The notes beneath the pieces were generated by a model. The model saw nothing but the letters and a program-made list of their open reading frames with translations. It did no database searches and was not told the DNA's origin. From positions 13,151 through 77,150 of the forward strand of contig CAYIDJ010000001.1 of the NCBI GenBank assembly GCA_964362215.1: a stretch of DNA of 64,000 bases. The letters run 5' to 3'. This stretch comes from an uncultured Candidatus Saccharibacteria bacterium. GTDB taxonomy: Bacteria; Patescibacteriota; Minisyncoccia; UBA6257; XYB1-36-10. Positions 6,251 through 56,029 of this stretch are shown here, in pieces. Numbering within the stretch: the first letter of the stretch is position 1; the number at the start of each line of letters is the position of its first letter. A program made the translations under genes and the position numbers.

Positions 6251-6446
6251 AGATGCGGATGTTGATTAATTAGTGTCTTAATAAATATGCCTTAAGCGCG
6301 CATCCGAGCCCGAGCGGGCATGGTTCCGCCGAAGAGGCGGAGAGCGAGGGCGAGGCGTAGTGAAAACTCTCGCTGGGAGTTTGAACGGTAGCGAAAGGCA
6401 TATTTATTAAGACACGCCTACCTCGCATATTCCATTCATCCGCATC
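6251..6446. repeat. Family-2 structured element, copy 1 (conserved core AAGCGCGCATCCGAGCCCGAGCGGGCA...GAGCGAGGGCGAGGCGTAG...ACGGTAGCGA inside covarying outer stems)
   Basis: Outer stem gtgtcttaataaatatgcct/aggcatatttattaagacac (6273-6415), plus a further outer pair agatgcggatg/catccgcatct. Homologous copies lie at 57997 and 58914. Confidence 0.75.
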
Positions 6447-6449
6447 TCC

Positions 6450-7061
6450 CTACTGCGCCGTCATGCTCTTCAACTTCTCAATCGCGTCTTGATACTGTTT
6501 ATTAAGGTCGTTTATCGCCGTCACCTCGTCGTTTATCTTTCCTATCACCGACCCTATTCTGTCCGGCGCCACCACCCCGCCGTCAAACTTGTTTTGTAAA
6601 ATTGACAGCAGTTCGTTCAAAAACCTTCCGTAGTTAAGAAGGCGGATAATAAGCGTCGTCTCATGGTTAATTGCCTTCAACGCCGTGTCCGTCGCCGCCC
6701 GCGGTGTTACCTCCGACAACACCTCCGCCATTTTCCGCAACTCCAGTGACAAATCATATGCCTTCTGTTGCAGCTCTCCCGTTCGCCGTATTTCCTCCCG
6801 CACCAACTCTATCGCCTCTCTCTGTCTCCCTTCCCGATCAAAATCATTTATTCGTCCTAAATTTCGCCCCGACTCCGCTGATAAATCCACTATCTGGCTG
6901 GCAATAATCGCTCCCGAACGATTTGCCTCTAAAAACTGGTCCGGCACGTGCGAATCCGTGGCTAAAACCAAAAACCACAGCAAATATACTGCCACCATTA
7001 CCACGGCAAAAACTGACCAAAAAACAGTTCTTTTTGAAATTCGGCTCAATGCGAATGCCAT
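6450..7061 (-). CDS. Hypothetical membrane-anchored protein (203 aa, N-terminal transmembrane helix, coiled-coil)
   Basis: N-terminal hydrophobic segment WSVFAVVMVAVYLLWFLVLA. No recognisable domain. Confidence 0.45.
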   Translation of the reverse strand: MAFALSRISKRTVFWSVFAVVMVAVYLLWFLVLATDSHVPDQFLEANRSGAIIASQIVDLSAESGRNLGRINDFDREGRQREAIELVREEIRRTGELQQKAYDLSLELRKMAEVLSEVTPRAATDTALKAINHETTLIIRLLNYGRFLNELLSILQNKFDGGVVAPDRIGSVIGKINDEVTAINDLNKQYQDAIEKLKSMTAQ

Positions 7062-9897: not shown

Positions 9898-10019
9898 AAT
9901 AATGCGTGCAAGTTTTTATTTCTTACATTTCGACCTTTCCCCATTATAAATGCTTGTGTTTAGTATAGCAAACTCGCCTCCCCCGCACAAACACTTGATT
10001 TTCCCCCACTTCAAACAAA

Positions 10020-10583
10020 TCAAACTAACTTATTAGTAACCGCTTTTACCAACTCAGGAAATTCTTTATATTCACTACCAAAATGACCATGATCATTAAA
10101 CTCGTAATACTCCGTACTTAACATCTTATTTATTAACCTCGGAGCATCTATTGAAAAGTATGGATCATCAGTAGAAGCAAACTGTATAATCCATTTCTGA
10201 TTTTTCTTTATAGCTTCCCAATTCCAGGGTTCTTCAAAATAACCACTCTGTTTCTCACGTTCGTCTCCTAAATCGCTATCGTAAGCGGAAACAAGAACAG
10301 ATCCTAATATATTATTATTCTCTGCCCACCTCATAGCCGCTACTGCCCCACTTGAATGCCCGATTAAAATAGTATTTTTATCTACTTTCAATTCCTTCAA
10401 AAAATAAAACCAATATTTCTCCCTTGCTAAAATTGAGTCGGGAAATTCTTGATTGATTGTTTTTATTCCCTTTTTTTCTAATTCCTGTTTCACATAAGGA
10501 AACCATTTATCTTCCGGTTTATCTCCTCCATTACCCGGTACAATAACTGCTTTTATATTCAATGAATTGTTAATCATACTCAA
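10020..10583 (-). CDS. Alpha/beta-fold serine hydrolase (RBBP9/YdeN-like esterase family)
   Basis: GHSSGA nucleophile elbow, VIVPGNGG N-terminus, C-terminal HGHF. The gene is markedly more AT-rich than its neighbours. Confidence 0.65.
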   Translation of the reverse strand: MSMINNSLNIKAVIVPGNGGDKPEDKWFPYVKQELEKKGIKTINQEFPDSILAREKYWFYFLKELKVDKNTILIGHSSGAVAAMRWAENNNILGSVLVSAYDSDLGDEREKQSGYFEEPWNWEAIKKNQKWIIQFASTDDPYFSIDAPRLINKMLSTEYYEFNDHGHFGSEYKEFPELVKAVTNKLV

Positions 10584-14830: not shown

Positions 14831-16492
14831 TTGTTCTCTAATCTGATAAACCTCTTTCGTCATCTCTCACACCCTGAACGGCGTTCCGTCTACATTACCG
14901 CTTTCGTCGCTCTCTTAGCCGTCACCGGCCTGGTATTCATCGGTTTTAATAACATAACTCGCGCCGTTCCCGTCCCCGGCGGCACCTGGACAGAAGGCAT
15001 TATCGGCCAGCCGGTTTTTATCAACCCGGTCATCTCCGGCAGCAACGATGCCGACCGCGACCTCATTGCCCTAACCTTCTGCTCTCTCTCTGATATCGCC
15101 GAAAAAATAGAACCCACCCGCGACCTCCAGGTCTGGCAGGTACGCCTCAAGGAAAACGCTCTCTGGCACGATGGTAAGCGTCTGACCAGCGACGATGTTA
15201 TCTTCACTATCGCCCGCATCCAGGACCCGGAGTACAAATCGCCGCAGAGCGCTACCTGGCAGGGAGTTACCGCTTCTCGCATCAGCGAACGCGAACTGTC
15301 TCTTTCTCTGGTCGCTCCCCTCTCTTTCTTCCCTGATAATCTGGAAAAACTTTATCTCATTCCCAAACATATCTTCGCCGATATTCCCTTAGCAAACTGG
15401 CGCCTCTCCGACTACAATCTTCAGCCCGTCGGCTGCGGCCCCTACCAATTTGACTCGTTTAAAAAACGGCCTGACGGCTTTATTACCCAGTTGAGCCTCA
15501 AAGCTAATCCCGACTATGTTGGCAACGCGCCTTTCATCTCTAACTTTGACATCGCTTTTTATACCGACCCCGAACAAGCCATTGAGGACTTTATCTTCGC
15601 TAAAATAGACGGCCTCGGCGGGCTTTCCAAAAAACAGTTGGATCAAATCCGCCGCAGTCACAATCTCTTCGCCCTCCCCACCCCCCGCTACTACTCCGTC
15701 TTTATTAACCAAAACGCCCACCCTGCTCTCAAAGACAAAAATGTACGTCTTGCCTTGGACAGCGCCATTGACCGTAACCTTCTCATCCGCGCCACCCTTG
15801 GCGGCTATGCCGAACCGGTTACCGGTCCCGTCACGCCCAACTTTCTGGAAGAAGTGGATCTGCCCCAGCCAACTGTCTCCCTCGATCCCCTGACTGATGC
15901 CGCTGATATTCTGGAGCAATCCGGCTGGAAACTGAACGAGAGCGGCACTCGCTCCAAAAAAATTAGTAAAAACGACGTTACCCTTGAGTTTGATTTGATT
16001 GTCCCGGAAATTGAGCCTCTCCTAAGCGCCGCCGAGTTTATCAAAAAAACCTGGGGTGAGATCGGCGTCAAAATCAACACCGTTATTCTCTCTCCGGAAA
16101 CAATTAACGGTAACGTTATCCGCGGCCGTAACTTCTCCCTCCTTCTTTTCGGTAATATCATTGGCCGTAGCCCGGACCTTTTCTCTTTCTGGCACTCCTC
16201 TCAAACCGACTACCCCGGCCTTAACCTCGCCCAGTACCAAAACCGCGCCGCCGACAAACTGATCGAATCTATCCGCCGCGGTGAAGACCCAGAGGAAGAA
16301 ACCAGCGACCTCGTCTCTCTTTACACCTTAATCCAACGTGACTTGCCGGCTGTCTTCCTTTATTCTCCGCAATATCTCTATCTTACCTCCTCCGACCTCA
16401 AGGGCTTCTCCGAAGATCTCATTGTCACCCCCGCCGACCGCTTCCGTAGCGTCTCTTCTTGGTATCTCAAAACCGCCCGCCAACTGAAATAA
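14831..16492 (+). CDS. ABC transporter substrate-binding protein, family 5 (peptide/nickel type)
   Basis: 553 aa, N-terminal anchor helix, SBP_bac_5-like conserved segments (WHDGKRLTSDDVIFT, ANPDYVG, KLIESIRRGEDPEE). No permease or ATPase genes adjacent. Confidence 0.65.
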   Translation: MFSNLINLFRHLSHPERRSVYITAFVALLAVTGLVFIGFNNITRAVPVPGGTWTEGIIGQPVFINPVISGSNDADRDLIALTFCSLSDIAEKIEPTRDLQVWQVRLKENALWHDGKRLTSDDVIFTIARIQDPEYKSPQSATWQGVTASRISERELSLSLVAPLSFFPDNLEKLYLIPKHIFADIPLANWRLSDYNLQPVGCGPYQFDSFKKRPDGFITQLSLKANPDYVGNAPFISNFDIAFYTDPEQAIEDFIFAKIDGLGGLSKKQLDQIRRSHNLFALPTPRYYSVFINQNAHPALKDKNVRLALDSAIDRNLLIRATLGGYAEPVTGPVTPNFLEEVDLPQPTVSLDPLTDAADILEQSGWKLNESGTRSKKISKNDVTLEFDLIVPEIEPLLSAAEFIKKTWGEIGVKINTVILSPETINGNVIRGRNFSLLLFGNIIGRSPDLFSFWHSSQTDYPGLNLAQYQNRAADKLIESIRRGEDPEEETSDLVSLYTLIQRDLPAVFLYSPQYLYLTSSDLKGFSEDLIVTPADRFRSVSSWYLKTARQLK

Positions 16493-16726: not shown

Positions 16727-16812
16727 GGGGATGTGGCGAAATGGCAGACGCGCAGCGTTCAGGGCGCTGTGAGCGCAAGCTCGTGGGAGTTCAAATCTCC
16801 CCATCCCCACCA
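16727..16812 (+). tRNA. tRNA-Leu (anticodon CAG), long variable arm, CCA encoded
   Basis: GGGGATGTGGCGAAATGGCAGACGCGCAGCGTTCAGGGCGCTGTGAGCGCAAGCTCGTGGGAGTTCAAATCTCCCCATCCCCACCA. Confidence 0.9.
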
Positions 16813-18280
16813 AGAGAGATTTGAACGCCGGAGTCCCGATTTTCAGCAGAAAATTGGGACGAGGCGGTGCCCAGTCCCGATGTGATATACATCGAGGATC
16901 CGCGATTCCGTAAACGGAATCGGGACCCGAGTCCCGCTGACGAGCGCGACGAGAGGCGAGGGCAAATCTCCCCATTCCCACCAGAACATAACTCAAATAT
17001 TCTAAGTAGACAGCAGAACAGATAGGATTTTTGTACTACTACGTTTCCAAAATATCCTCTCATGATGTATATTAAACACATGGACAATGATAATACCCCA
17101 CCAGACGTAAATCCAGAAAACCTGCAATCGCCAGAGCAAGAAGTTTCTCCCGTGCCGCTATCACAAAAAAATCCTACTAAGCAGTGGTTTCTATATTCCA
17201 TTACGATAATTGGACTCATTACAGTTATCATTGTTGTAATTATATTCTTAAACGCAAGTAAAGACGGCGAAGTTAATGGGAATAGAACTCAAGATAATCA
17301 ACTCGCACAGGAAGAAAAGTTACCTGTAGAAACAAGTCTAATGAATCGCCTTATCCAATTTACTGATTCTGCTCCTAATGGTGTCTATAAATTAGTAACG
17401 AACAGCGGAGAAACAAACTTACAAGTTGATCAATTATTGACGACTGGAGGTTTTTATTTCCAAAACCGTGGAACAGGTGAATTATATAATCTCATCTCCT
17501 ACGATGATTATTCTAATCAATCAACTATTAACACCCCCCTTTTAAAACTAAAAAAGATAGAGGATGTTAACTATAATAATTTTTATGTGTACCAAAAAGA
17601 TACGAGATATGCGACAGACCTGAAAAATGTATACTATATTGAATGGACCCCTACGGGTTTTACGTCTTCTCTTAATTATAGATATTCAGTTCAATCTGAT
17701 TATAATTACACACTTCAAATTCTTAGAGGTGCTGACCTAAAAACTTTTGAACCAAATATTGTAACAACTTTTCCTATATCTCAAGGTAACGGTTTTCAAG
17801 GTTTATATTCACGAGATATAAAAACAGTTTTCTACGGCTCAGAAGCTCTCGAGGGAGTTGATGCTCCGACATTTAAGCTTTCAGAAGATGTGTCTATTAC
17901 GTCCGACAAAAATCGTGTCTATTTGTGGAATAAAATAATTCCCCTAGCCGACCCGGAAACATATATAATTATATTTGATGGAAGCGCCGACGGTCGCGGT
18001 ACGGTATATGGTAAAGACAAAAATAATGTTTTTGTAGATTACTGTTTATTGACGGGTATTGACCCAAATAGCTTCTCTATAAATTGGAATAGAGATCCAA
18101 CCGAATATGCAGATAAACAAGGAGTGTTCAATATTGATTTGCAAAAAAATAAAGAGCGTATAGTAGAATCATGCATCGTTGTCAGATAAATTGATTAAAA
18201 CAGTATATAAAACACTTAGTAAAAAACAAAATAGTTTAAATTATAACAATAAACGAAGGCAAATCTCCCCATCCCCACCA
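16813..18280 (+). mobile_element. tRNA-Leu-associated integrated islet (~1.5 kb) bounded by 21-bp direct repeats of the tRNA 3' end. No integrase is retained.
   Basis: caaatctccccatccccacca (tRNA 3' end, 16792-16812) is repeated at 18260-18280 (identical) and 16963-16983 (1 mismatch). The cargo is an AT-rich gene plus a 150-nt hairpin-rich segment. Confidence 0.65.
17062..18189 (+). CDS. DKNYY-repeat-like protein with N-terminal transmembrane anchor (islet cargo)
   Basis: Repeated DKNxVY / KNVYY motifs (DLKNVYYIEW, DKNRVYLWNK, DKNNVFVDY). Codon usage is strongly AT-rich, unlike the flanking genes. Confidence 0.55.
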   Translation: MMYIKHMDNDNTPPDVNPENLQSPEQEVSPVPLSQKNPTKQWFLYSITIIGLITVIIVVIIFLNASKDGEVNGNRTQDNQLAQEEKLPVETSLMNRLIQFTDSAPNGVYKLVTNSGETNLQVDQLLTTGGFYFQNRGTGELYNLISYDDYSNQSTINTPLLKLKKIEDVNYNNFYVYQKDTRYATDLKNVYYIEWTPTGFTSSLNYRYSVQSDYNYTLQILRGADLKTFEPNIVTTFPISQGNGFQGLYSRDIKTVFYGSEALEGVDAPTFKLSEDVSITSDKNRVYLWNKIIPLADPETYIIIFDGSADGRGTVYGKDKNNVFVDYCLLTGIDPNSFSINWNRDPTEYADKQGVFNIDLQKNKERIVESCIVVR

Positions 18281-18321
18281 ATTAGAGTTTAGTCCGCCTT
18301 AGGCGGAAGGATTTAGAGTTT

Positions 18322-19074
18322 ATGCTAATTCTATTATACGGCCCCGACTCCTATCACCGCCACCAACGCCTTGACCATATTCTCTCCATCTACCGCCAAA
18401 AACACGCAGGCCTTTCCCTACGCTATTTTGATTTCTCCTCTCCCGACCCCACCCCCCTCCTCGCTGACCTCTCCGCCTTCTGCGGCACCCTCTCTCTTTT
18501 TGAACCGATAAAATTAGGCATCATCCAAAATCCCTTCCTCCTCGAACTCTTGCGTACCGTTGAAAACATAGCTTCCGATAAATCCACTACCCTCATTCTC
18601 GTCTCCGACGACACCCCGCCTGCCCCTTTTTCTTTTCTTCTTAAACCGCCGGTTCAGTCGGAATCTTTTCCGCCTCTTTCCAACCTCGCTCTGTGCGAAT
18701 TTATAAAAAAAGAGGCCTCTTCCCGCGGCCTTTCTCTAAACCAAGAAATTATTTCTCTTCTTGCCGACGAATATGGCCCCAACCTCTGGGGTTTAGCCAA
18801 CGACCTTGACCGCCGCTCACTCTCCAGTGACTCCTCTTCTCCCGCTCGCCGCTTTAACTTCTTCTCTCTTATCCGCGCCCTCACCGAAAGCCAAATTGAG
18901 CGCCGCCTCTCCGCTTACTGTCTTCTTCTCGCCTCCCGTGAAGAACCGGCTAAAATTTTTAATCTCCTTGCTTACCAATTAGGTATTGACCGCCGCCGCG
19001 CCGCCGCCCTTGACCTGGACATCAAATCCGGCCGCCTTGAATACCCCGAAGCTATCCTCTCTCTCATCCTCTAA
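18322..19074 (+). CDS. holA: DNA polymerase III delta subunit (short form)
   Basis: MLILLYGPDSY N-terminus is typical of HolA. Length 250 aa. Preceded by the TTTAGAGTTTA motif. Confidence 0.5.
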   Translation: MLILLYGPDSYHRHQRLDHILSIYRQKHAGLSLRYFDFSSPDPTPLLADLSAFCGTLSLFEPIKLGIIQNPFLLELLRTVENIASDKSTTLILVSDDTPPAPFSFLLKPPVQSESFPPLSNLALCEFIKKEASSRGLSLNQEIISLLADEYGPNLWGLANDLDRRSLSSDSSSPARRFNFFSLIRALTESQIERRLSAYCLLLASREEPAKIFNLLAYQLGIDRRRAAALDLDIKSGRLEYPEAILSLIL

Positions 19075-19762: not shown

Positions 19763-20500
19763 CTATTGTTTAGAGTTTAGTCCGCCTCCGCCAACTGGCG
19801 GATGGCGAATTGATTTTCTAAATTCCAATTGTCTCTCTATCACCCTAAAATCCCCCTCCAGCGCCTCCCTCATGCCGCGGTTATAAACCGCCACCGCCGG
19901 GTGGTAAAGCGGAACAAAAGTCACCGGACCGTACTCCATTTCCGTTTCAAATACTTTTCCGTGCGCCTGACTTATCGGCTCTATCAGCTCCCTCATCCCA
20001 TACCGCTCCATAAGATAAATCATCGCGAACCTCCCCAGCGCCGCGATTATCTCCGGTTTTATTATGGCTATCTGCCTATCCAAAAAAGGCGCGTAAAGCT
20101 CTATCTCCTGCGGTAACGGGTCGCGATTGTTTGGCGGCCTGTCTTTTAAAATATTGGTGATGTATACCTCGTTCCGCGGCAGATTTATCAGTTCCAAAAG
20201 CTCGTCCAACACCTTCCCCGCCGCCCCGCAAAACGGCCTTCCCTGTTCCGCCTCATTCTTTCCCGGCGCCTCCCCCACCAACATCACGCTGGCAAAATGA
20301 TCCCCCTCGCCCACCACTGGTTTAACTCTGGTAGCGTATAGAGGCGATTCTTTGAGGTCAATTACTCCATCCCTCACCTCCTTCAGCGCCTCATACCTCT
20401 GCCTCCGTTCCTCTTCAGTTATCTCTCCGTTTTTCCCCATACTTAATACCTTCTTTATACTTCCTAATGCCGCCATCATACTACACCTCTCAAAAAACAA
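19763..20500 (-). CDS. Uracil-DNA glycosylase, family 4
   Basis: GEAPGKNEAEQGRPFCGAAGKVLDELL (motif A) and HPA (motif B, in VPLYHPAVAV). The true start may be an internal Met. Confidence 0.8.
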   Translation of the reverse strand: MFFERCSMMAALGSIKKVLSMGKNGEITEEERRQRYEALKEVRDGVIDLKESPLYATRVKPVVGEGDHFASVMLVGEAPGKNEAEQGRPFCGAAGKVLDELLELINLPRNEVYITNILKDRPPNNRDPLPQEIELYAPFLDRQIAIIKPEIIAALGRFAMIYLMERYGMRELIEPISQAHGKVFETEMEYGPVTFVPLYHPAVAVYNRGMREALEGDFRVIERQLEFRKSIRHPPVGGGGLNSKQ

Positions 20501-52930: not shown

Positions 52931-53432
52931 ATCCTCATTTCTCCTTTATCGCTAATCTATCACCTAATTCAACTAATGTCTAAAAATAAAACATCTCCCA
53001 TTTTTGGTTAAAAGTGAGAGATATTTTATTTTTTTGTTAATCCCTCCGGTACAAAATTATATTCTCCCGAAGGGTCTCACGTTCTTTAAGTTGTTTTATT
53101 TACTCTTCATCTCCCACCCCTTCACTTCCTCCCAACTTATCGTCGCCCTCCTCCTCCTCTTCTTCCTCGTCTTCGCCCTCTTCTATATCCGTGTCATCGC
53201 CGTCTATCTCCTCATCCTCATCCACCAATACCGGCTCAATCTCCGTCTTAAATAAACTTGCCATAAAAATAAATAAACGCTTATAACGCGACCTTTTATT
53301 TATTTGGTGATTATATAAAACCCTCTTTATCTGTCAACCCCGTGAACAAATTAAAATTTATTTACGCTCGACCCAGAGATTGACTCTAGCTAAGGCCAGA
53401 GTCACTTTATTTCTCTCTTTTATTTTTACCGA

Positions 53433-54536
53433 TCACGACTTCACCGGCATTAGAATATAAATATAAGAATCATCACTTGAATCCTTTATTGCCGTCGGTT
53501 TGTCTTTAAAATTAACTTTCAATTTTATCTCTCCCCCTTTTACCGACCTAATACCGGATAAAAGATAGTGCCAGTTAAAAACAACTTTTCCCCCTCCTCC
53601 CGCCACCTTTGCCGGCACTAAATATTTATTTTCCCCAACCCCCTGACTCATTGATGTAATCTCTATAAAATTCTTATTCACGGCCAGAGTCACATCCGAT
53701 ATTTTACTGGATAAAACACTGACTACTTTAAGCGCCGTCACCATCTCCTCTTTTAAAGCTACCACCTCTGTATCGTAAGCGCTTGGAATTATTTGTTTAT
53801 AATCAGGAAAACTACCGTCAATTAAATGAGATACTATCATCACCCCCTCTCCCGAAAACATAATTTGATTTGAATCAATATAAATCTTAACCTCTTCTCC
53901 TTCCGGTAAAACCCTAATTAATTCGTTTACTGTTTTAAGCGGCGCAATTAAAGACCAACCCTCATCGCCCTTCAGAGAAAATTCGTCTTTATAAATAATT
54001 CTTTCCGCTAAACGAAAACTGTCTGTTCCCGCTATTCTTAATTCATTATTTTCTGCCGATATAAAAATTCCGTTTATCTCTGGCCTTAATTCGGAAAACG
54101 TCGTCGCTGACATCACTTGCGCTATTATTTCTTTTAATCTCGCCGCTGGTAAAATTAAAACTGGATCTTTATTGGTAATATTTGGAATAATCGGAAAATC
54201 ATCAACGGCTAAAGTTTGAATTTGTGCCTCATAATTATCCGTTTGAATGTTAAATTTATCTTTTTCTGTGCTTAAATTAACCACCTCACTCGTTAGATTT
54301 GAAATTATTGAGCTAAAAACACCAGCTGGTACTGTTACCGCTCCCGACTCAATAATCTTTCCCGGACATATCTGTGTCACTCCTATCTCTAAATTTGTCG
54401 CCGATAGTTTTATCTCTCCATTATCAACTTTAATTAATAAATTCTTAAGTATTGGTAAATTAGAAGATTCATTGCAAATTTTTGCCACAATTTCCACCAC
54501 TCTTTTTAAATTATTTTTTACAAATACTAATTTCAT
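53433..54536 (-). CDS. dnaN: DNA polymerase III beta sliding clamp
   Basis: MKLVFVKNNLKRVVEIVAKI..., 367 aa with three-domain clamp organisation, immediately downstream of dnaA. Confidence 0.85.
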   Translation of the reverse strand: MKLVFVKNNLKRVVEIVAKICNESSNLPILKNLLIKVDNGEIKLSATNLEIGVTQICPGKIIESGAVTVPAGVFSSIISNLTSEVVNLSTEKDKFNIQTDNYEAQIQTLAVDDFPIIPNITNKDPVLILPAARLKEIIAQVMSATTFSELRPEINGIFISAENNELRIAGTDSFRLAERIIYKDEFSLKGDEGWSLIAPLKTVNELIRVLPEGEEVKIYIDSNQIMFSGEGVMIVSHLIDGSFPDYKQIIPSAYDTEVVALKEEMVTALKVVSVLSSKISDVTLAVNKNFIEITSMSQGVGENKYLVPAKVAGGGGKVVFNWHYLLSGIRSVKGGEIKLKVNFKDKPTAIKDSSDDSYIYILMPVKS

Positions 54537-54667
54537 TCTTAAAATCTAACTCTCTTTATATTATATATATTTATTATTATAGTAATACTTTATCTTTTCC
54601 TGTTAAAAACAATAAATTATCCACTATTTAACGTATTTTAATATATAATAAGATGTTAATAATATGT
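54537..54667. other. Candidate oriC segment (AT-rich dnaA-dnaN intergenic region with a DnaA-box TTATCCACT)
   Basis: 131 bp, ~85% AT, with TTATCCACT at 54617-54625 (8/9 match to TTATCCACA). Flanked by dnaA and dnaN. Confidence 0.4.
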
Positions 54668-56029
54668 TTAACTCTTGTATATTAATTCCTTTATTAAATT
54701 AACTTTTTGGTTTAAATTACTATTTTTTAATATTTCCTTGTTTATTTTTTCACAGGCATGGATAGCGGTTGTGTGGTCTCTCTTCCCCACCTTATCCCCA
54801 ATAAAAGGATAAGACATACTTAAAACATTACGGAGTAAATACATTATTATCTGCCTTGGTTCCACTATCTCTTTTTTTCTTGATTTTCCTACTAAATCAC
54901 TTATTGGGACCTCATAAAAATCAGCTACTGCCTTAATAATCTTATTTGGATTAACATTCTTATTACTTTGATTGTTTTTACTTATTATATCTTCTACCAC
55001 TTCCTCCGTAATTTGTATATTTTTACTTTCTTTTACGAATATTATTTTATTTAATATCCCCTCTATTTCTCTTATGTTTTTGGTTAATTTATTAGCTATT
55101 AAACTCACCACCGGCTCGTCCAGGGAATGGTGGCATTCCTGCAATTTTGTCTTTATTATCGCCATTCTCATCTCATAGTCGGGATAACTGATATCAACCG
55201 TCATTCCCCCCTCAAACCGGCTTCTTAAGCGCTCCTGTAACGTTGGTAATTCACTGGGTGGACGATCGGAAGAAATTATAATCTGCTTGTTAATTGAGTG
55301 TAAAGCGTTAAAAGTGTGAAAAAATTCTTCCTCCGTCTTTTCTTTACCTCCAATAAACTGTATATCGTCTATAATTAAAGTATCCACGTTCCGGTAGCGG
55401 CTCTTTATATCCTCCATCCGCTTATTTTTTATAGCCCAAACCACGTCGCTAACGAACCTTTCTGAAGTCACATACTTGACGGAAACCACATCTTTATACA
55501 TAGCCATAATCTCATTGCCGATTGACTGTATTAAATGGGTTTTTCCCAACCCCACCCCTCCGTAAATAAACAGCGGATTGTACTTTACTCCCACATTTTT
55601 TACTACCGCCTGCGCGGCGGCAAAAGCCAGCTCATTAGCCGATCCCACCACAAAGTTTTTGAATGTATATTTAGGATTAAGATTGGTGTTCGGGTTTATT
55701 TTAAACTCCGGAAACATCATTTGCGCGGAAGGCATATAAGCCGTTTTAGCTTTATGCGACAATGTTAACGCCTTAAATATCCCCCCCGACACCACAAACT
55801 CCACTTTTCTGGCGGAAGAATCCAAATTGCGCAGTACGCTTAAAATATTTTTATTATATTTATTTTCCACCCACTCCTTTGAAAAATTATTTGGCAGTGC
55901 TATCACAAAAGTGCCGGCATCGTCCTTATCTACTAATTTACTGTTCTTAAGCCAGGTATGAAAATTAGCGTGAGTCAGCTGAACTTCCATTTCCCCTAAT
56001 ACCGATTCCCAAATTTTTTCCAACTCCAT
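54668..56029 (-). CDS. dnaA: Chromosomal replication initiator protein DnaA
   Basis: AAA+ Walker A GGVGLGKTHL, sensor motifs, and the C-terminal DNA-binding domain (DHTTAIHACEKI). Confidence 0.9.
   Translation of the reverse strand: MELEKIWESVLGEMEVQLTHANFHTWLKNSKLVDKDDAGTFVIALPNNFSKEWVENKYNKNILSVLRNLDSSARKVEFVVSGGIFKALTLSHKAKTAYMPSAQMMFPEFKINPNTNLNPKYTFKNFVVGSANELAFAAAQAVVKNVGVKYNPLFIYGGVGLGKTHLIQSIGNEIMAMYKDVVSVKYVTSERFVSDVVWAIKNKRMEDIKSRYRNVDTLIIDDIQFIGGKEKTEEEFFHTFNALHSINKQIIISSDRPPSELPTLQERLRSRFEGGMTVDISYPDYEMRMAIIKTKLQECHHSLDEPVVSLIANKLTKNIREIEGILNKIIFVKESKNIQITEEVVEDIISKNNQSNKNVNPNKIIKAVADFYEVPISDLVGKSRKKEIVEPRQIIMYLLRNVLSMSYPFIGDKVGKRDHTTAIHACEKINKEILKNSNLNQKVNLIKELIYKS

Follow-up and report, generated by a model that had tools for sequence, protein, structure and literature searches.

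In the islands at the tmRNA gene (ssrA) of Dehalococcoides, a 20-bp direct repeat recurs with a conserved non-ssrA motif to the left of each copy, insertion takes place midway along the T-loop, and the tandem members without an integration module have been proposed to be cis-mobilizable (PMC3146451). Cis-mobilizable elements (CIMEs) have lost their integration and transfer genes, keep both attL and attR, and accrete in tandem at the 3′ end of a target gene (Pavlovic et al. 2004; PMC5704250), which leaves three or more direct repeats (PMC5704250). In the tycheposons of Prochlorococcus, neighbouring elements are separated by a partial tRNA copy, scattered partial tRNAs mark older integrations, and circular and tandem junctions have been detected in populations (Hackl et al., 10.1101/2020.12.28.424599). 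Here we describe a locus that resembles these systems in an uncultured Candidatus Saccharibacteria bacterium of the candidate phyla radiation (CPR). The stretch analysed, hereafter the window, comprises 64,000 nucleotides (contig CAYIDJ010000001.1, positions 13,151 to 77,150) and belongs to a genome of Parcubacteria type that resembles Liptonbacteria. At 16727–18280 of the window, a tRNA-Leu(CAG) gene is followed by two further copies of its own 3′ end, a structured segment of 150 nt (unit A) and an AT-rich gene of the DKNYY family. This region is probably a miniature, integrase-less tandem array of the CIME kind, for which the 3′ end of tRNA-Leu(CAG) served as the target of site-specific recombination. 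The case is carried by the repeats, the foreign composition of the insert, a longer array that a sister lineage has at this locus, the conservation of both the site and its structured arm, and the lack of a recombinase among the open reading frames (ORFs) scanned.

By analogy, the closest layout is that of the Dehalococcoides ssrA islands. Shared with them are tandem units, a 3′-end repeat of about 20 bp, a non-gene motif on the left, low-GC cargo, a small streamlined genome and members without an integrase, and the boundary here falls at T55|C56. The target, however, is tRNA-Leu(CAG) and not tmRNA, the modules measure 0.17–2.1 kb with zero to one gene against about 7 kb or more for the islands, and the motif on the left continues into a structured unit that is conserved and 100–150 nt long; neither dsiB (a CcrB-like serine recombinase) nor the six-gene integration module of Dehalococcoides was found in the window. 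As in CIMEs, the att repeats are intact and no recombinase or transfer gene lies inside the element. CIMEs are nevertheless defined by a cognate mobilising integrative and conjugative element or integrative and mobilizable element, none of which is seen here, and the present modules are far smaller and reside in a CPR host; the one hint of mobilisation, an indirect one, is a junction between two repeat copies in a sister contig. With tycheposons the locus shares a streamlined genome, tRNA-integrated cargo modules and partial tRNA copies between elements, but the tyrosine (or large serine) recombinase and the replication genes that define them were not found here, and the cargo is a single gene. 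Like other islets that target tRNA genes, it has 3′-end repeats next to an intact tRNA and a compositionally distinct insert, although no recombinase of its own was found.

Integron arrays are made mostly of single-gene cassettes with imperfectly palindromic attC sites, in which structure is conserved over sequence, and clusters of attC sites lacking integrases (CALINs) occur with no integrase nearby. Single-ORF modules, palindromic sites of conserved structure and the missing integrase recall integrons and CALINs, respectively, whereas IntI and the R″/R′ boxes are absent, the modules are probably self-promoted, the closing stem is inconsistent, and 21 nt of the site are copied from the 3′ end of a tRNA. 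The array does not belong to the integron family. The recombinase by which the island families are defined is missing from it, and it would work in the way that those families do. Recombination modules at tRNA 3′ ends are known, and what is new is a miniature, integrase-less form in a CPR bacterium. Its distinguishing features are the very small modules, the conserved structured arm, sites that outlasted replacement of the tRNA, and a recombinant junction in the sister lineage.

Repeats and structured arm at the tRNA-Leu 3′ end

The array contains the following features, given in window coordinates.

16727–16812, plus strand: tRNA-Leu(CAG), with an encoded CCA and the acceptor stem GGGGATG/CATCCCC, in the attL-type position
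16792–16812, plus strand: repeat copy 1, CAAATCTCCCCATCCCCACCA, without mismatches, from C56 in the T-loop of the tRNA to its 3′ CCA
16813–16962, plus strand: unit A, the GC-rich structured arm left of copy 2, delimited by its fold and by homology with the sister lineage
16963–16983, plus strand: repeat copy 2, identical at 20 of 21 positions, with one C>T change (CATTCCC variant)
17044–17073, plus strand: candidate promoter, TTTCCA-18 nt-TATATT, from a consensus scan (CTTCCA...TATAGT in the sister)
17062–18189, plus strand: DKNYY-family cargo gene (Pfam PF13644, E 3.4e-15, 57.3 bits, cut-off 25)
18254–18280, plus strand: repeat copy 3, exact at 21 of 21 positions (18260–18280), with CGAAGG just to its left; attR-type boundary

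The tRNA-Leu(CAG) gene was located by ARAGORN and matched the tRNA/tmRNA clan with cmscan. An earlier inspection of the letters without database searches (the sequence-only reading) had reported that the last 21 nt of the tRNA recur exactly at 18260–18280 and with one mismatch at 16963–16983, both extra copies sharing an extension to the left. These positions were confirmed, as was the extension, with CGAGGG and CGAAGG before CAAAT in the extra copies and GGAGTT before CAAAT in the tRNA. Because the left extensions differ from that of the tRNA, the identity between copies starts between T55 and C56 of the T-loop. The CGAAGG beside copy 3 is a remnant of a conserved left arm, AGAGGCGAGGG. Beyond the three copies, CAAATCTCCCCATCCCCACCA has no further match with up to three mismatches in the 64 kb, and none was found in 100 shuffles. 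The C>T change of copy 2 would yield a G4·U69 pair if placed in the tRNA, and the sister's old tRNA-Leu ends in the same variant. A tandem tRNA array, which the sequence-only reading had named as an observation that would speak against integration, is not what the locus holds, since ARAGORN gives a single tRNA and only its last 21 nt are repeated in the window. No extra 3′-end copies of any other tRNA or tmRNA occur in the window or in the compared loci. In agreement with the attL/attR-like role first assigned to them, the copies act like sites of recombination into the 3′ end of the tRNA. Other parts of that account had to be given up: the repeats are tandem and not nested, and two sequential integrations are not demonstrable from these data.

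The closest homologue of the DKNYY protein (P0002, 77% identical) is encoded at this locus by a sister lineage; the neighbouring substrate-binding protein (SBP) of that lineage shows 83% amino-acid identity. Four sister contigs (L008, L009, L010 and L013) came from four data sets, namely ENA, two JGI samples and Logan. The order in the sister is SBP, tRNA-Leu, a YkuD+Peptidase_S11 gene on the minus strand, a structured unit with a repeat copy, a gene of 235 amino acids that belongs to no known family, a second structured unit with a copy, DKNYY, AGAGGCGAGGG with a copy, and a holA-like gene. The sister array thus contains three single-gene modules of 1.25–2.1 kb and four repeat copies, all with at most two mismatches from the window 21-mer, and its modules have 32–41% GC against about 50% in the core. 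The presence of the same gene at the locus of a relative without the repeats had also been named as contrary evidence; the sister has the gene together with the repeats. A metagenome scan with the junction GGCAAATCTCCCCATYCCCAC returned L009 only.

The functional tRNA-Leu of the sister has a different acceptor stem and 3′ end, and it lies inside a decayed older tRNA-Leu. The 3′ two-thirds of the older gene end in CATTCCCACCA, the variant that window copy 2 has as well. Equating window copy 2 with this old tRNA end was considered, given the shared T variant and a right flank of about 13 nt with 9–10 matches, and rejected because the stretch is too short for orthology. In L008 at 6312–6511 (803–1003 in L009), the inner gene is a complete tRNA-Leu(CAG) (Rfam tRNA, 48 bits) with the acceptor stem GCTGGGA/TCCCAGC, no encoded CCA and a 13-bp extension of the acceptor stem, placed exactly in the D-loop of the older tRNA-Leu(CAG). 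Pairing is kept in both the D stem and the anticodon stem of the latter, where compensatory changes set it apart from the window tRNA; two mismatches are found in its 5′ acceptor strand, and it no longer has G18G19. The whole stretch of 206 nt folds into nested cloverleaves (−94.4 kcal/mol, z = −5.4), and the inner tRNA could be a minigene with terminal inverted repeats that displaced the resident tRNA. The adjacent YkuD+Peptidase_S11 gene is bracketed by 89-bp inverted repeats, 97.8% identical (L009 1020–1108 and 2718–2806, equal to L008 6528–6616 and 8226–8314), and this segment may be invertible or separately mobile.

Unit A has a GC content of 0.587. It starts with GAGATTTGAAC (16816–16826), the exact reverse complement of GTTCAAATCTC in the tRNA, contains a conserved hairpin at 16829–16867, and ends in GCGCGACGAGAGGCGAGGG (16944–16962). 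The start motif lies 3 nt past the tRNA, where pairing between it and the 3′ half of the T-arm is possible, and the resulting hairpin at 16786–16830 has z = −8.2. The abundance of hairpins initially noted in these 150 nt was verified: as RNA, the stretch 16813–16983 folds with −77.4 kcal/mol (z = −6.1 against shuffles), and the minus strand as single-stranded DNA has z = −4.9. Compared with the sister unit that precedes sister copy 2 (L008 8522–8641), unit A is 89% identical over the 5′ 70 nt and 97% over the 3′ 38 nt, which ranks it above the SBP gene (77% at the DNA level) and far above the non-coding DNA beside DKNYY (61–66%). All differences in the stem of hairpin 16829–16867 keep the pairing, two being double compensatory changes, one a change from G·T to G-C and one a bulge, and the main hairpin folds identically in the window and the sister. 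The three full units, one in the window and two in the sister, each start with (G)AGATTTGAAC and each end in a repeat copy. The middle of unit A (approximately 16883–16940) has extra hairpins without a counterpart in the sister unit, at least one of which resembles short GC hairpins that are common in the intergenic DNA of this genome.

Sequence of the unit A type was found nowhere else in the compared sequences, and Rfam at permissive thresholds gave nothing but tRNA in the window region and in L009. A 17-mer from the 5′ motif of the unit, AGATTTGAACGCCGGAG, matched four viral contigs; these were dismissed as chance matches, the two inspected (L024 and L026) being apparently coding and none of the four having a tRNA. 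A view of the 150-nt segment as a separate islet did not survive the comparison, since the segment is homologous to a conserved unit that stands left of a repeat copy beside a different gene module in the sister. Judged by this homology, unit A is best read as the arm of a recombination site and not as a second decayed islet.

The core of the site comprises about 30 nt, AGAGGCGAGGG|CAAATCTCCCCAT(C/T)CCCAC. Its left part is unlike the tRNA, and in its full form this part reaches into the structured unit of 100–150 nt. The stretch TCTCCCCAT(C/T)CCCAC is invariant in all seven copies of the two genomes (the window tRNA end and six others), and of the six non-tRNA copies, three have AGAGGCGAGGG on their left and a fourth has the CGAAGG remnant there. 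At the divergence of the adjacent non-coding DNA (61–66% identity), the probability that one orthologous 21-mer keeps at least 20 of its 21 positions is about 8e-4. In the sister, the match between the copies and the functional tRNA has been lost.

A recombinant arrangement was observed at the end of L008 (11170–11287). There the DKNYY end, which flanks copy 4 on the left, is joined to the sequence that flanks copy 2 on the right, where the module with the 235-aa gene starts. L009, which comes from another sample and is 99.9% identical to L008, continues into the holA-like gene instead. L008 ends exactly at the last unique 119-mer ahead of the merge point, where a de Bruijn unitig would be expected to stop, so the junction is probably present in the reads. 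Its sequence would fit recombination between repeats, implying either a 2558-bp circle or a tandem duplication. The Logan contig L010, which ends inside copy 4, was dropped as a second witness of this branch because a 30-nt repeat equals k−1 for a 31-mer graph. For the window, the predicted junctions are ATTAGAGTTTAG for the empty site (tRNA body and right flank of copy 3) and AATAAACGAAGG|CAAATCTCCCCATTCCCACCAGAACAT for a DKNYY circle of 1297 bp.

From this arrangement we infer the recombination mechanism, the position of the crossover at T55|C56 and any continuing activity. An incoming circular module would recombine with the site on the side of the tRNA, restoring the tRNA and leaving one extra copy of its 3′ end per insertion, and the outcome would be a tandem array in which tRNA, module, copy, module and copy follow each other. 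The window would represent a short version, with a gene-less module (unit A, consisting of the site arm only) and a single cargo module, in which an AT-rich gene under its own promoter would encode a DKNYY surface protein anchored in the membrane. The array would have been built and reshuffled through the 3′ end of tRNA-Leu(CAG) by a recombinase that either acts in trans or has been lost.

Composition and cargo of the DKNYY module

The segment between copies 2 and 3 (16984–18259, 1276 bp) has a GC content of 0.339 compared with 0.51 in the 5 kb on either side. For the DKNYY ORF itself the value is 0.349, with 0.277 at third codon positions (GC3), while the flanking genes have 0.525 and 0.521, with GC3 of 0.62 and 0.56. 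The comparison suggested by the sequence-only reading, which had called the ORF AT-rich relative to its flanks, therefore upholds that description. In addition, the GC skew is close to zero in the module, against −0.2 to −0.5 elsewhere, and the plus-strand excess of C over G is absent there. The DKNYY segment is compositionally foreign. Along the whole window (1–64000), the plus-strand GC skew lies between −0.15 and −0.5 in nearly all 1-kb windows, regardless of gene orientation; its sign does not change at dnaA/dnaN, and the DKNYY module is the sole clear exception. The region of dnaN (53433–54536) and dnaA (54668–56029) has a low GC content as well, 0.29–0.39 over 53001–56000 compared with a window mean of 0.48.

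The search against PF13644 proposed at the outset gave the match listed above, and the repeated DKN.VY and KNVYY motifs are present; all 17 DKNYY homologues found also match this family, for which we know of no function. The annotated start of the gene is ATG 17062 or 17065. The sister orthologue starts at the equivalent of ATG 17080 and its upstream ATG runs into a stop, so the true start is probably ATG 17080. The −10-like TATATT ends 6 nt upstream of this ATG, which suggests that the mRNA may be leaderless or nearly so and that the module brings its own expression signals. An AlphaFold2 model (mean pLDDT, the predicted local distance difference test, 68.7) shows a helix at residues 38–65 followed by strands. 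The protein is predicted from this model to be membrane-anchored, with an N-terminal transmembrane helix and an all-β ectodomain, and the model has no match in the PDB with E < 0.1.

Comparison with the sister orthologue gives non-synonymous and synonymous divergences (dN and dS) of 0.12 and 0.42, values that point to purifying selection on the DKNYY gene. The dS is lower than that of SBP (1.29); this was considered as a sign of later exchange and set aside, since AT bias at third positions deflates dS and the overall DNA identity is similar. At the DNA level the DKNYY module is 82.5% identical to the sister copy, similar to core genes, and the module is old. Homologues with 43–48% identity in other Parcubacteria are not adjacent to a tRNA. 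They are found in a cluster with the order VirB4/TrwB-like ATPase, DKNYY, SAM methyltransferase, SBP_bac_1 and two to six T4SS_pilin genes (L011 3367–16265, L021 1972–8376 and the P0006 contig). This context suggests a source for the gene and an action at the cell surface, and it hints at a role in that apparatus.

Relatives and genomic surroundings

The array is set between two core genes, and a further hairpin lies between copy 3 and the gene on the right.

14831–16492, plus strand: SBP_bac_5 substrate-binding protein gene, the left flanking core gene (ORF list; Pfam PF00496 in precomputed annotation)
18282–18310, plus strand: hairpin TTAGAGTTTAGTCCGCCTTAGGCGGA, with a second copy at 19770, of a dispersed intergenic hairpin family
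18322–19074, plus strand: holA-like gene (DNA polymerase III delta subunit), the right flanking core gene (weak match to Pfam DNA_pol3_delta_C, 24.2 bits, below cut-off)

The identity of the holA-like gene is also backed by a syntenic ORF of 260–261 amino acids in relatives. Those relatives whose SBP protein is 55–60% identical keep the local gene order, which is RNase Y, iPGM, holin-like, SBP, holA-like, S20, UDG, ClpB, NUDIX, L20, IF3 and SmpB. The gap between SBP and the holA-like gene is about 3 nt in L003 and in L015–L019. In L014 the junction holds only an unrelated DUF5662 gene, AT-rich and on the minus strand (9958–10401), without a tRNA. Given this insert, the junction between SBP and the holA-like gene may be a recurrent insertion point. 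The tRNA-Leu is absent from the locus in all four relatives scanned (L003, L014, L015 and L016), in which the neighbouring cluster of Pro, Arg and Gly tRNAs is conserved. Since these relatives have neither the tRNA-Leu nor the modules, the tRNA with its attached modules is an insertion specific to the lineage of the window. The empty tRNA-Leu site that the sequence-only reading expected in related genomes was thus not encountered: the relatives lack the tRNA-Leu as well, and the only close relative is occupied, by a longer array.

The hairpin at 18282–18310 is probably not part of the element. Several families of short GC-rich hairpins were noted in the window, apparently intergenic where their position was checked and similar in appearance to repetitive extragenic palindromic (REP) sequences. 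TCCGCC-N3–5-GGCGGA occurs seven times against none expected (5683, 5876, 6325, 18293, 19787, 20600 and 57913), and an ATTCC.GCG.A.GC.GGAAT hairpin occurs five times (219, 16599, 24619, 42827 and 63778). Two further sequences, CGGACGGCCGCTGGAGCCGTCCG (31979 and 39755) and the 17-mer TTAGAGTTTAGTCCGCC (18282 and 19770), are each present twice.

Weighing the readings of the locus

Several observations weigh against a site-specific recombination array. The most direct concerns the enzyme. No tyrosine or serine recombinase domain was detected in the 30 window ORFs of at least 150 amino acids that were scanned with Pfam; the remaining long ORFs overlap tested genes or were named from the precomputed annotation of an overlapping contig. 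The genes of the window are housekeeping genes, including dnaA, dnaN, polA, ruvB, ruvC, RNase J and ClpP. Between the repeats, a single ORF (DKNYY) and no recombinase or transfer gene is found, which verifies the early remark that the element has no integrase and, with the Pfam scan, extends it beyond the element. IMG/VR gave no exact match to the 19-nt core, neither viral relatives nor a PHROGs match were found for the DKNYY protein or the 235-aa protein, and searches of GenBank phages (blastn) and plasmids (tblastn) gave nothing for either site or cargo. No donor came to light, and the site was not found in any viral or phage contig. As no recombinase is present in the scanned window ORFs, and site and cargo are absent from viral, phage and plasmid records, any recombinase must act in trans or have been lost. 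The array is seen in two lineages only, and no genome among those compared has the tRNA-Leu without modules. The differences between window and sister modules are not all bounded by repeats, since the DKNYY homology resumes about 25–40 nt to the right of the copy, and with its 82.5% DNA identity to the sister the DKNYY module might represent a fixed scar. Some of the repeat conservation could be due to gene conversion from a tRNA that has lost its function only recently, and part of the folding strength of unit A is not specific to the site because GC-rich hairpins are common in intergenic DNA. Finally, the L008 junction is no proof of site-specific catalysis, as an identity of 30 nt could support rare homologous recombination.

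Among the alternatives, an active, integron-like cassette platform has a small but appreciable chance of being correct. Here a recombinase encoded elsewhere would insert, excise and reorder single-gene cassettes with the tRNA-Leu 3′ end as attI. The three single-gene modules of the sister with sites between them would agree with such a platform, as would full units that start with GAGATTTGAAC and end in CAAATCTC or AAATTCTC, terminal inverted repeats comparable to R″/R′ of attC. The hairpin of the unit is kept by compensatory changes, so that structure rather than sequence would be selected; the gene-less window unit would be an empty cassette, the L008 junction is consistent with an excised circle of two cassettes, and the sites are conserved although the resident tRNA of the sister was replaced. 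Set against this, neither an IntI-like nor any other recombinase is present among the Pfam-scanned window ORFs, the canonical attC boxes (RYYYAAC/GTTRRRY) are absent, the unit ends being GAGATTTGAAC ... GGGCAAATCTC, and a closing stem is predicted for the window unit, whereas the minimum-energy folds of both sister units lack it. A full unit is missing at the right-hand site of the DKNYY module, the cassettes appear to bring promoters, judging by the conserved promoter-like motif before DKNYY, and one gene (YkuD) is inverted with 89-bp inverted repeats of its own; moreover, only two genomes are known and the DKNYY module is distal in both. A more specific version, a capture platform of CPR/Parcubacteria on a tRNA gene, we regard as unlikely; its self-promoted cassettes would be bounded by a core some 30 nt long, copied from the tRNA between mid-T-loop and CCA, together with a folded arm of some 100 nt, and would be excised as small circles. 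Were the integron-like platform true, the sites would be selected even after replacement of the tRNA, and unit A would correspond to an "empty cassette", or else to an attachment site that is still bare and ready for capture. This alternative sharpens the reading as a CIME-like array rather than opposing it.

It is improbable that the repeats and unit A are instead functional RNA or regulatory elements, either a 3′ external transcribed spacer of the tRNA or processing and stability signals that mimic a tRNA 3′ end, whose copies spread by duplication or gene conversion while the AT-rich gene came by another route. Unit A does begin 3 nt after the tRNA with a strong RNA fold (z = −6.1), compensatory changes in a hairpin are what a structured RNA classically shows, pairing with the T-arm is possible for the motif after the tRNA (z = −8.2), and all units and copies are on the tRNA strand, 80–190 nt upstream of a plus-strand gene. 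Yet no Rfam family was found in the window region or L009 at the permissive thresholds, and the copies have no acceptor-strand partner, hence no tRNA-like minihelix. They also coincide exactly with the borders of foreign single-gene segments in two genomes, a recombinant junction exists between two of them, and in Dehalococcoides a site-specific recombinase goes with this same layout (PMC3146451). A chimeric join of AT-rich foreign reads at a short repeat, that is, an assembly or binning artefact, is almost certainly not the explanation. The source is metagenome-assembled, short repeats could branch the graph and coverage is low (the name of the ENA contig includes "cov_6"). The window arrangement is nonetheless not an assembly artefact, because the identical sequence was found in an independent ENA contig from Hainich groundwater, and the orthologous DKNYY module lies between the same flanking genes in the sister contigs from four data sets. 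The same DKNYY protein is also listed on an NCBI contig of 80.6 kb (homologue search only).

Little is known about how accessory genes are gained and lost in the CPR (Patescibacteria), whose genomes are tiny. The tRNA-Leu locus would indicate that site-specific recombination at a tRNA 3′ end operates in these bacteria in a miniature form, with modules of zero to one gene. The cargo seen so far is related to the cell envelope, comprising the predicted membrane-anchored DKNYY protein and an L,D-transpeptidase/carboxypeptidase fusion, in addition to one protein of unknown function. If the sites are inactive, the array would be an ordinary, well-documented kind of decayed tandem islet. If they are active, it would constitute a simple cassette-exchange system in an uncultivated lineage, testable by polymerase chain reaction (PCR), and would provide a handle on the recombinase.

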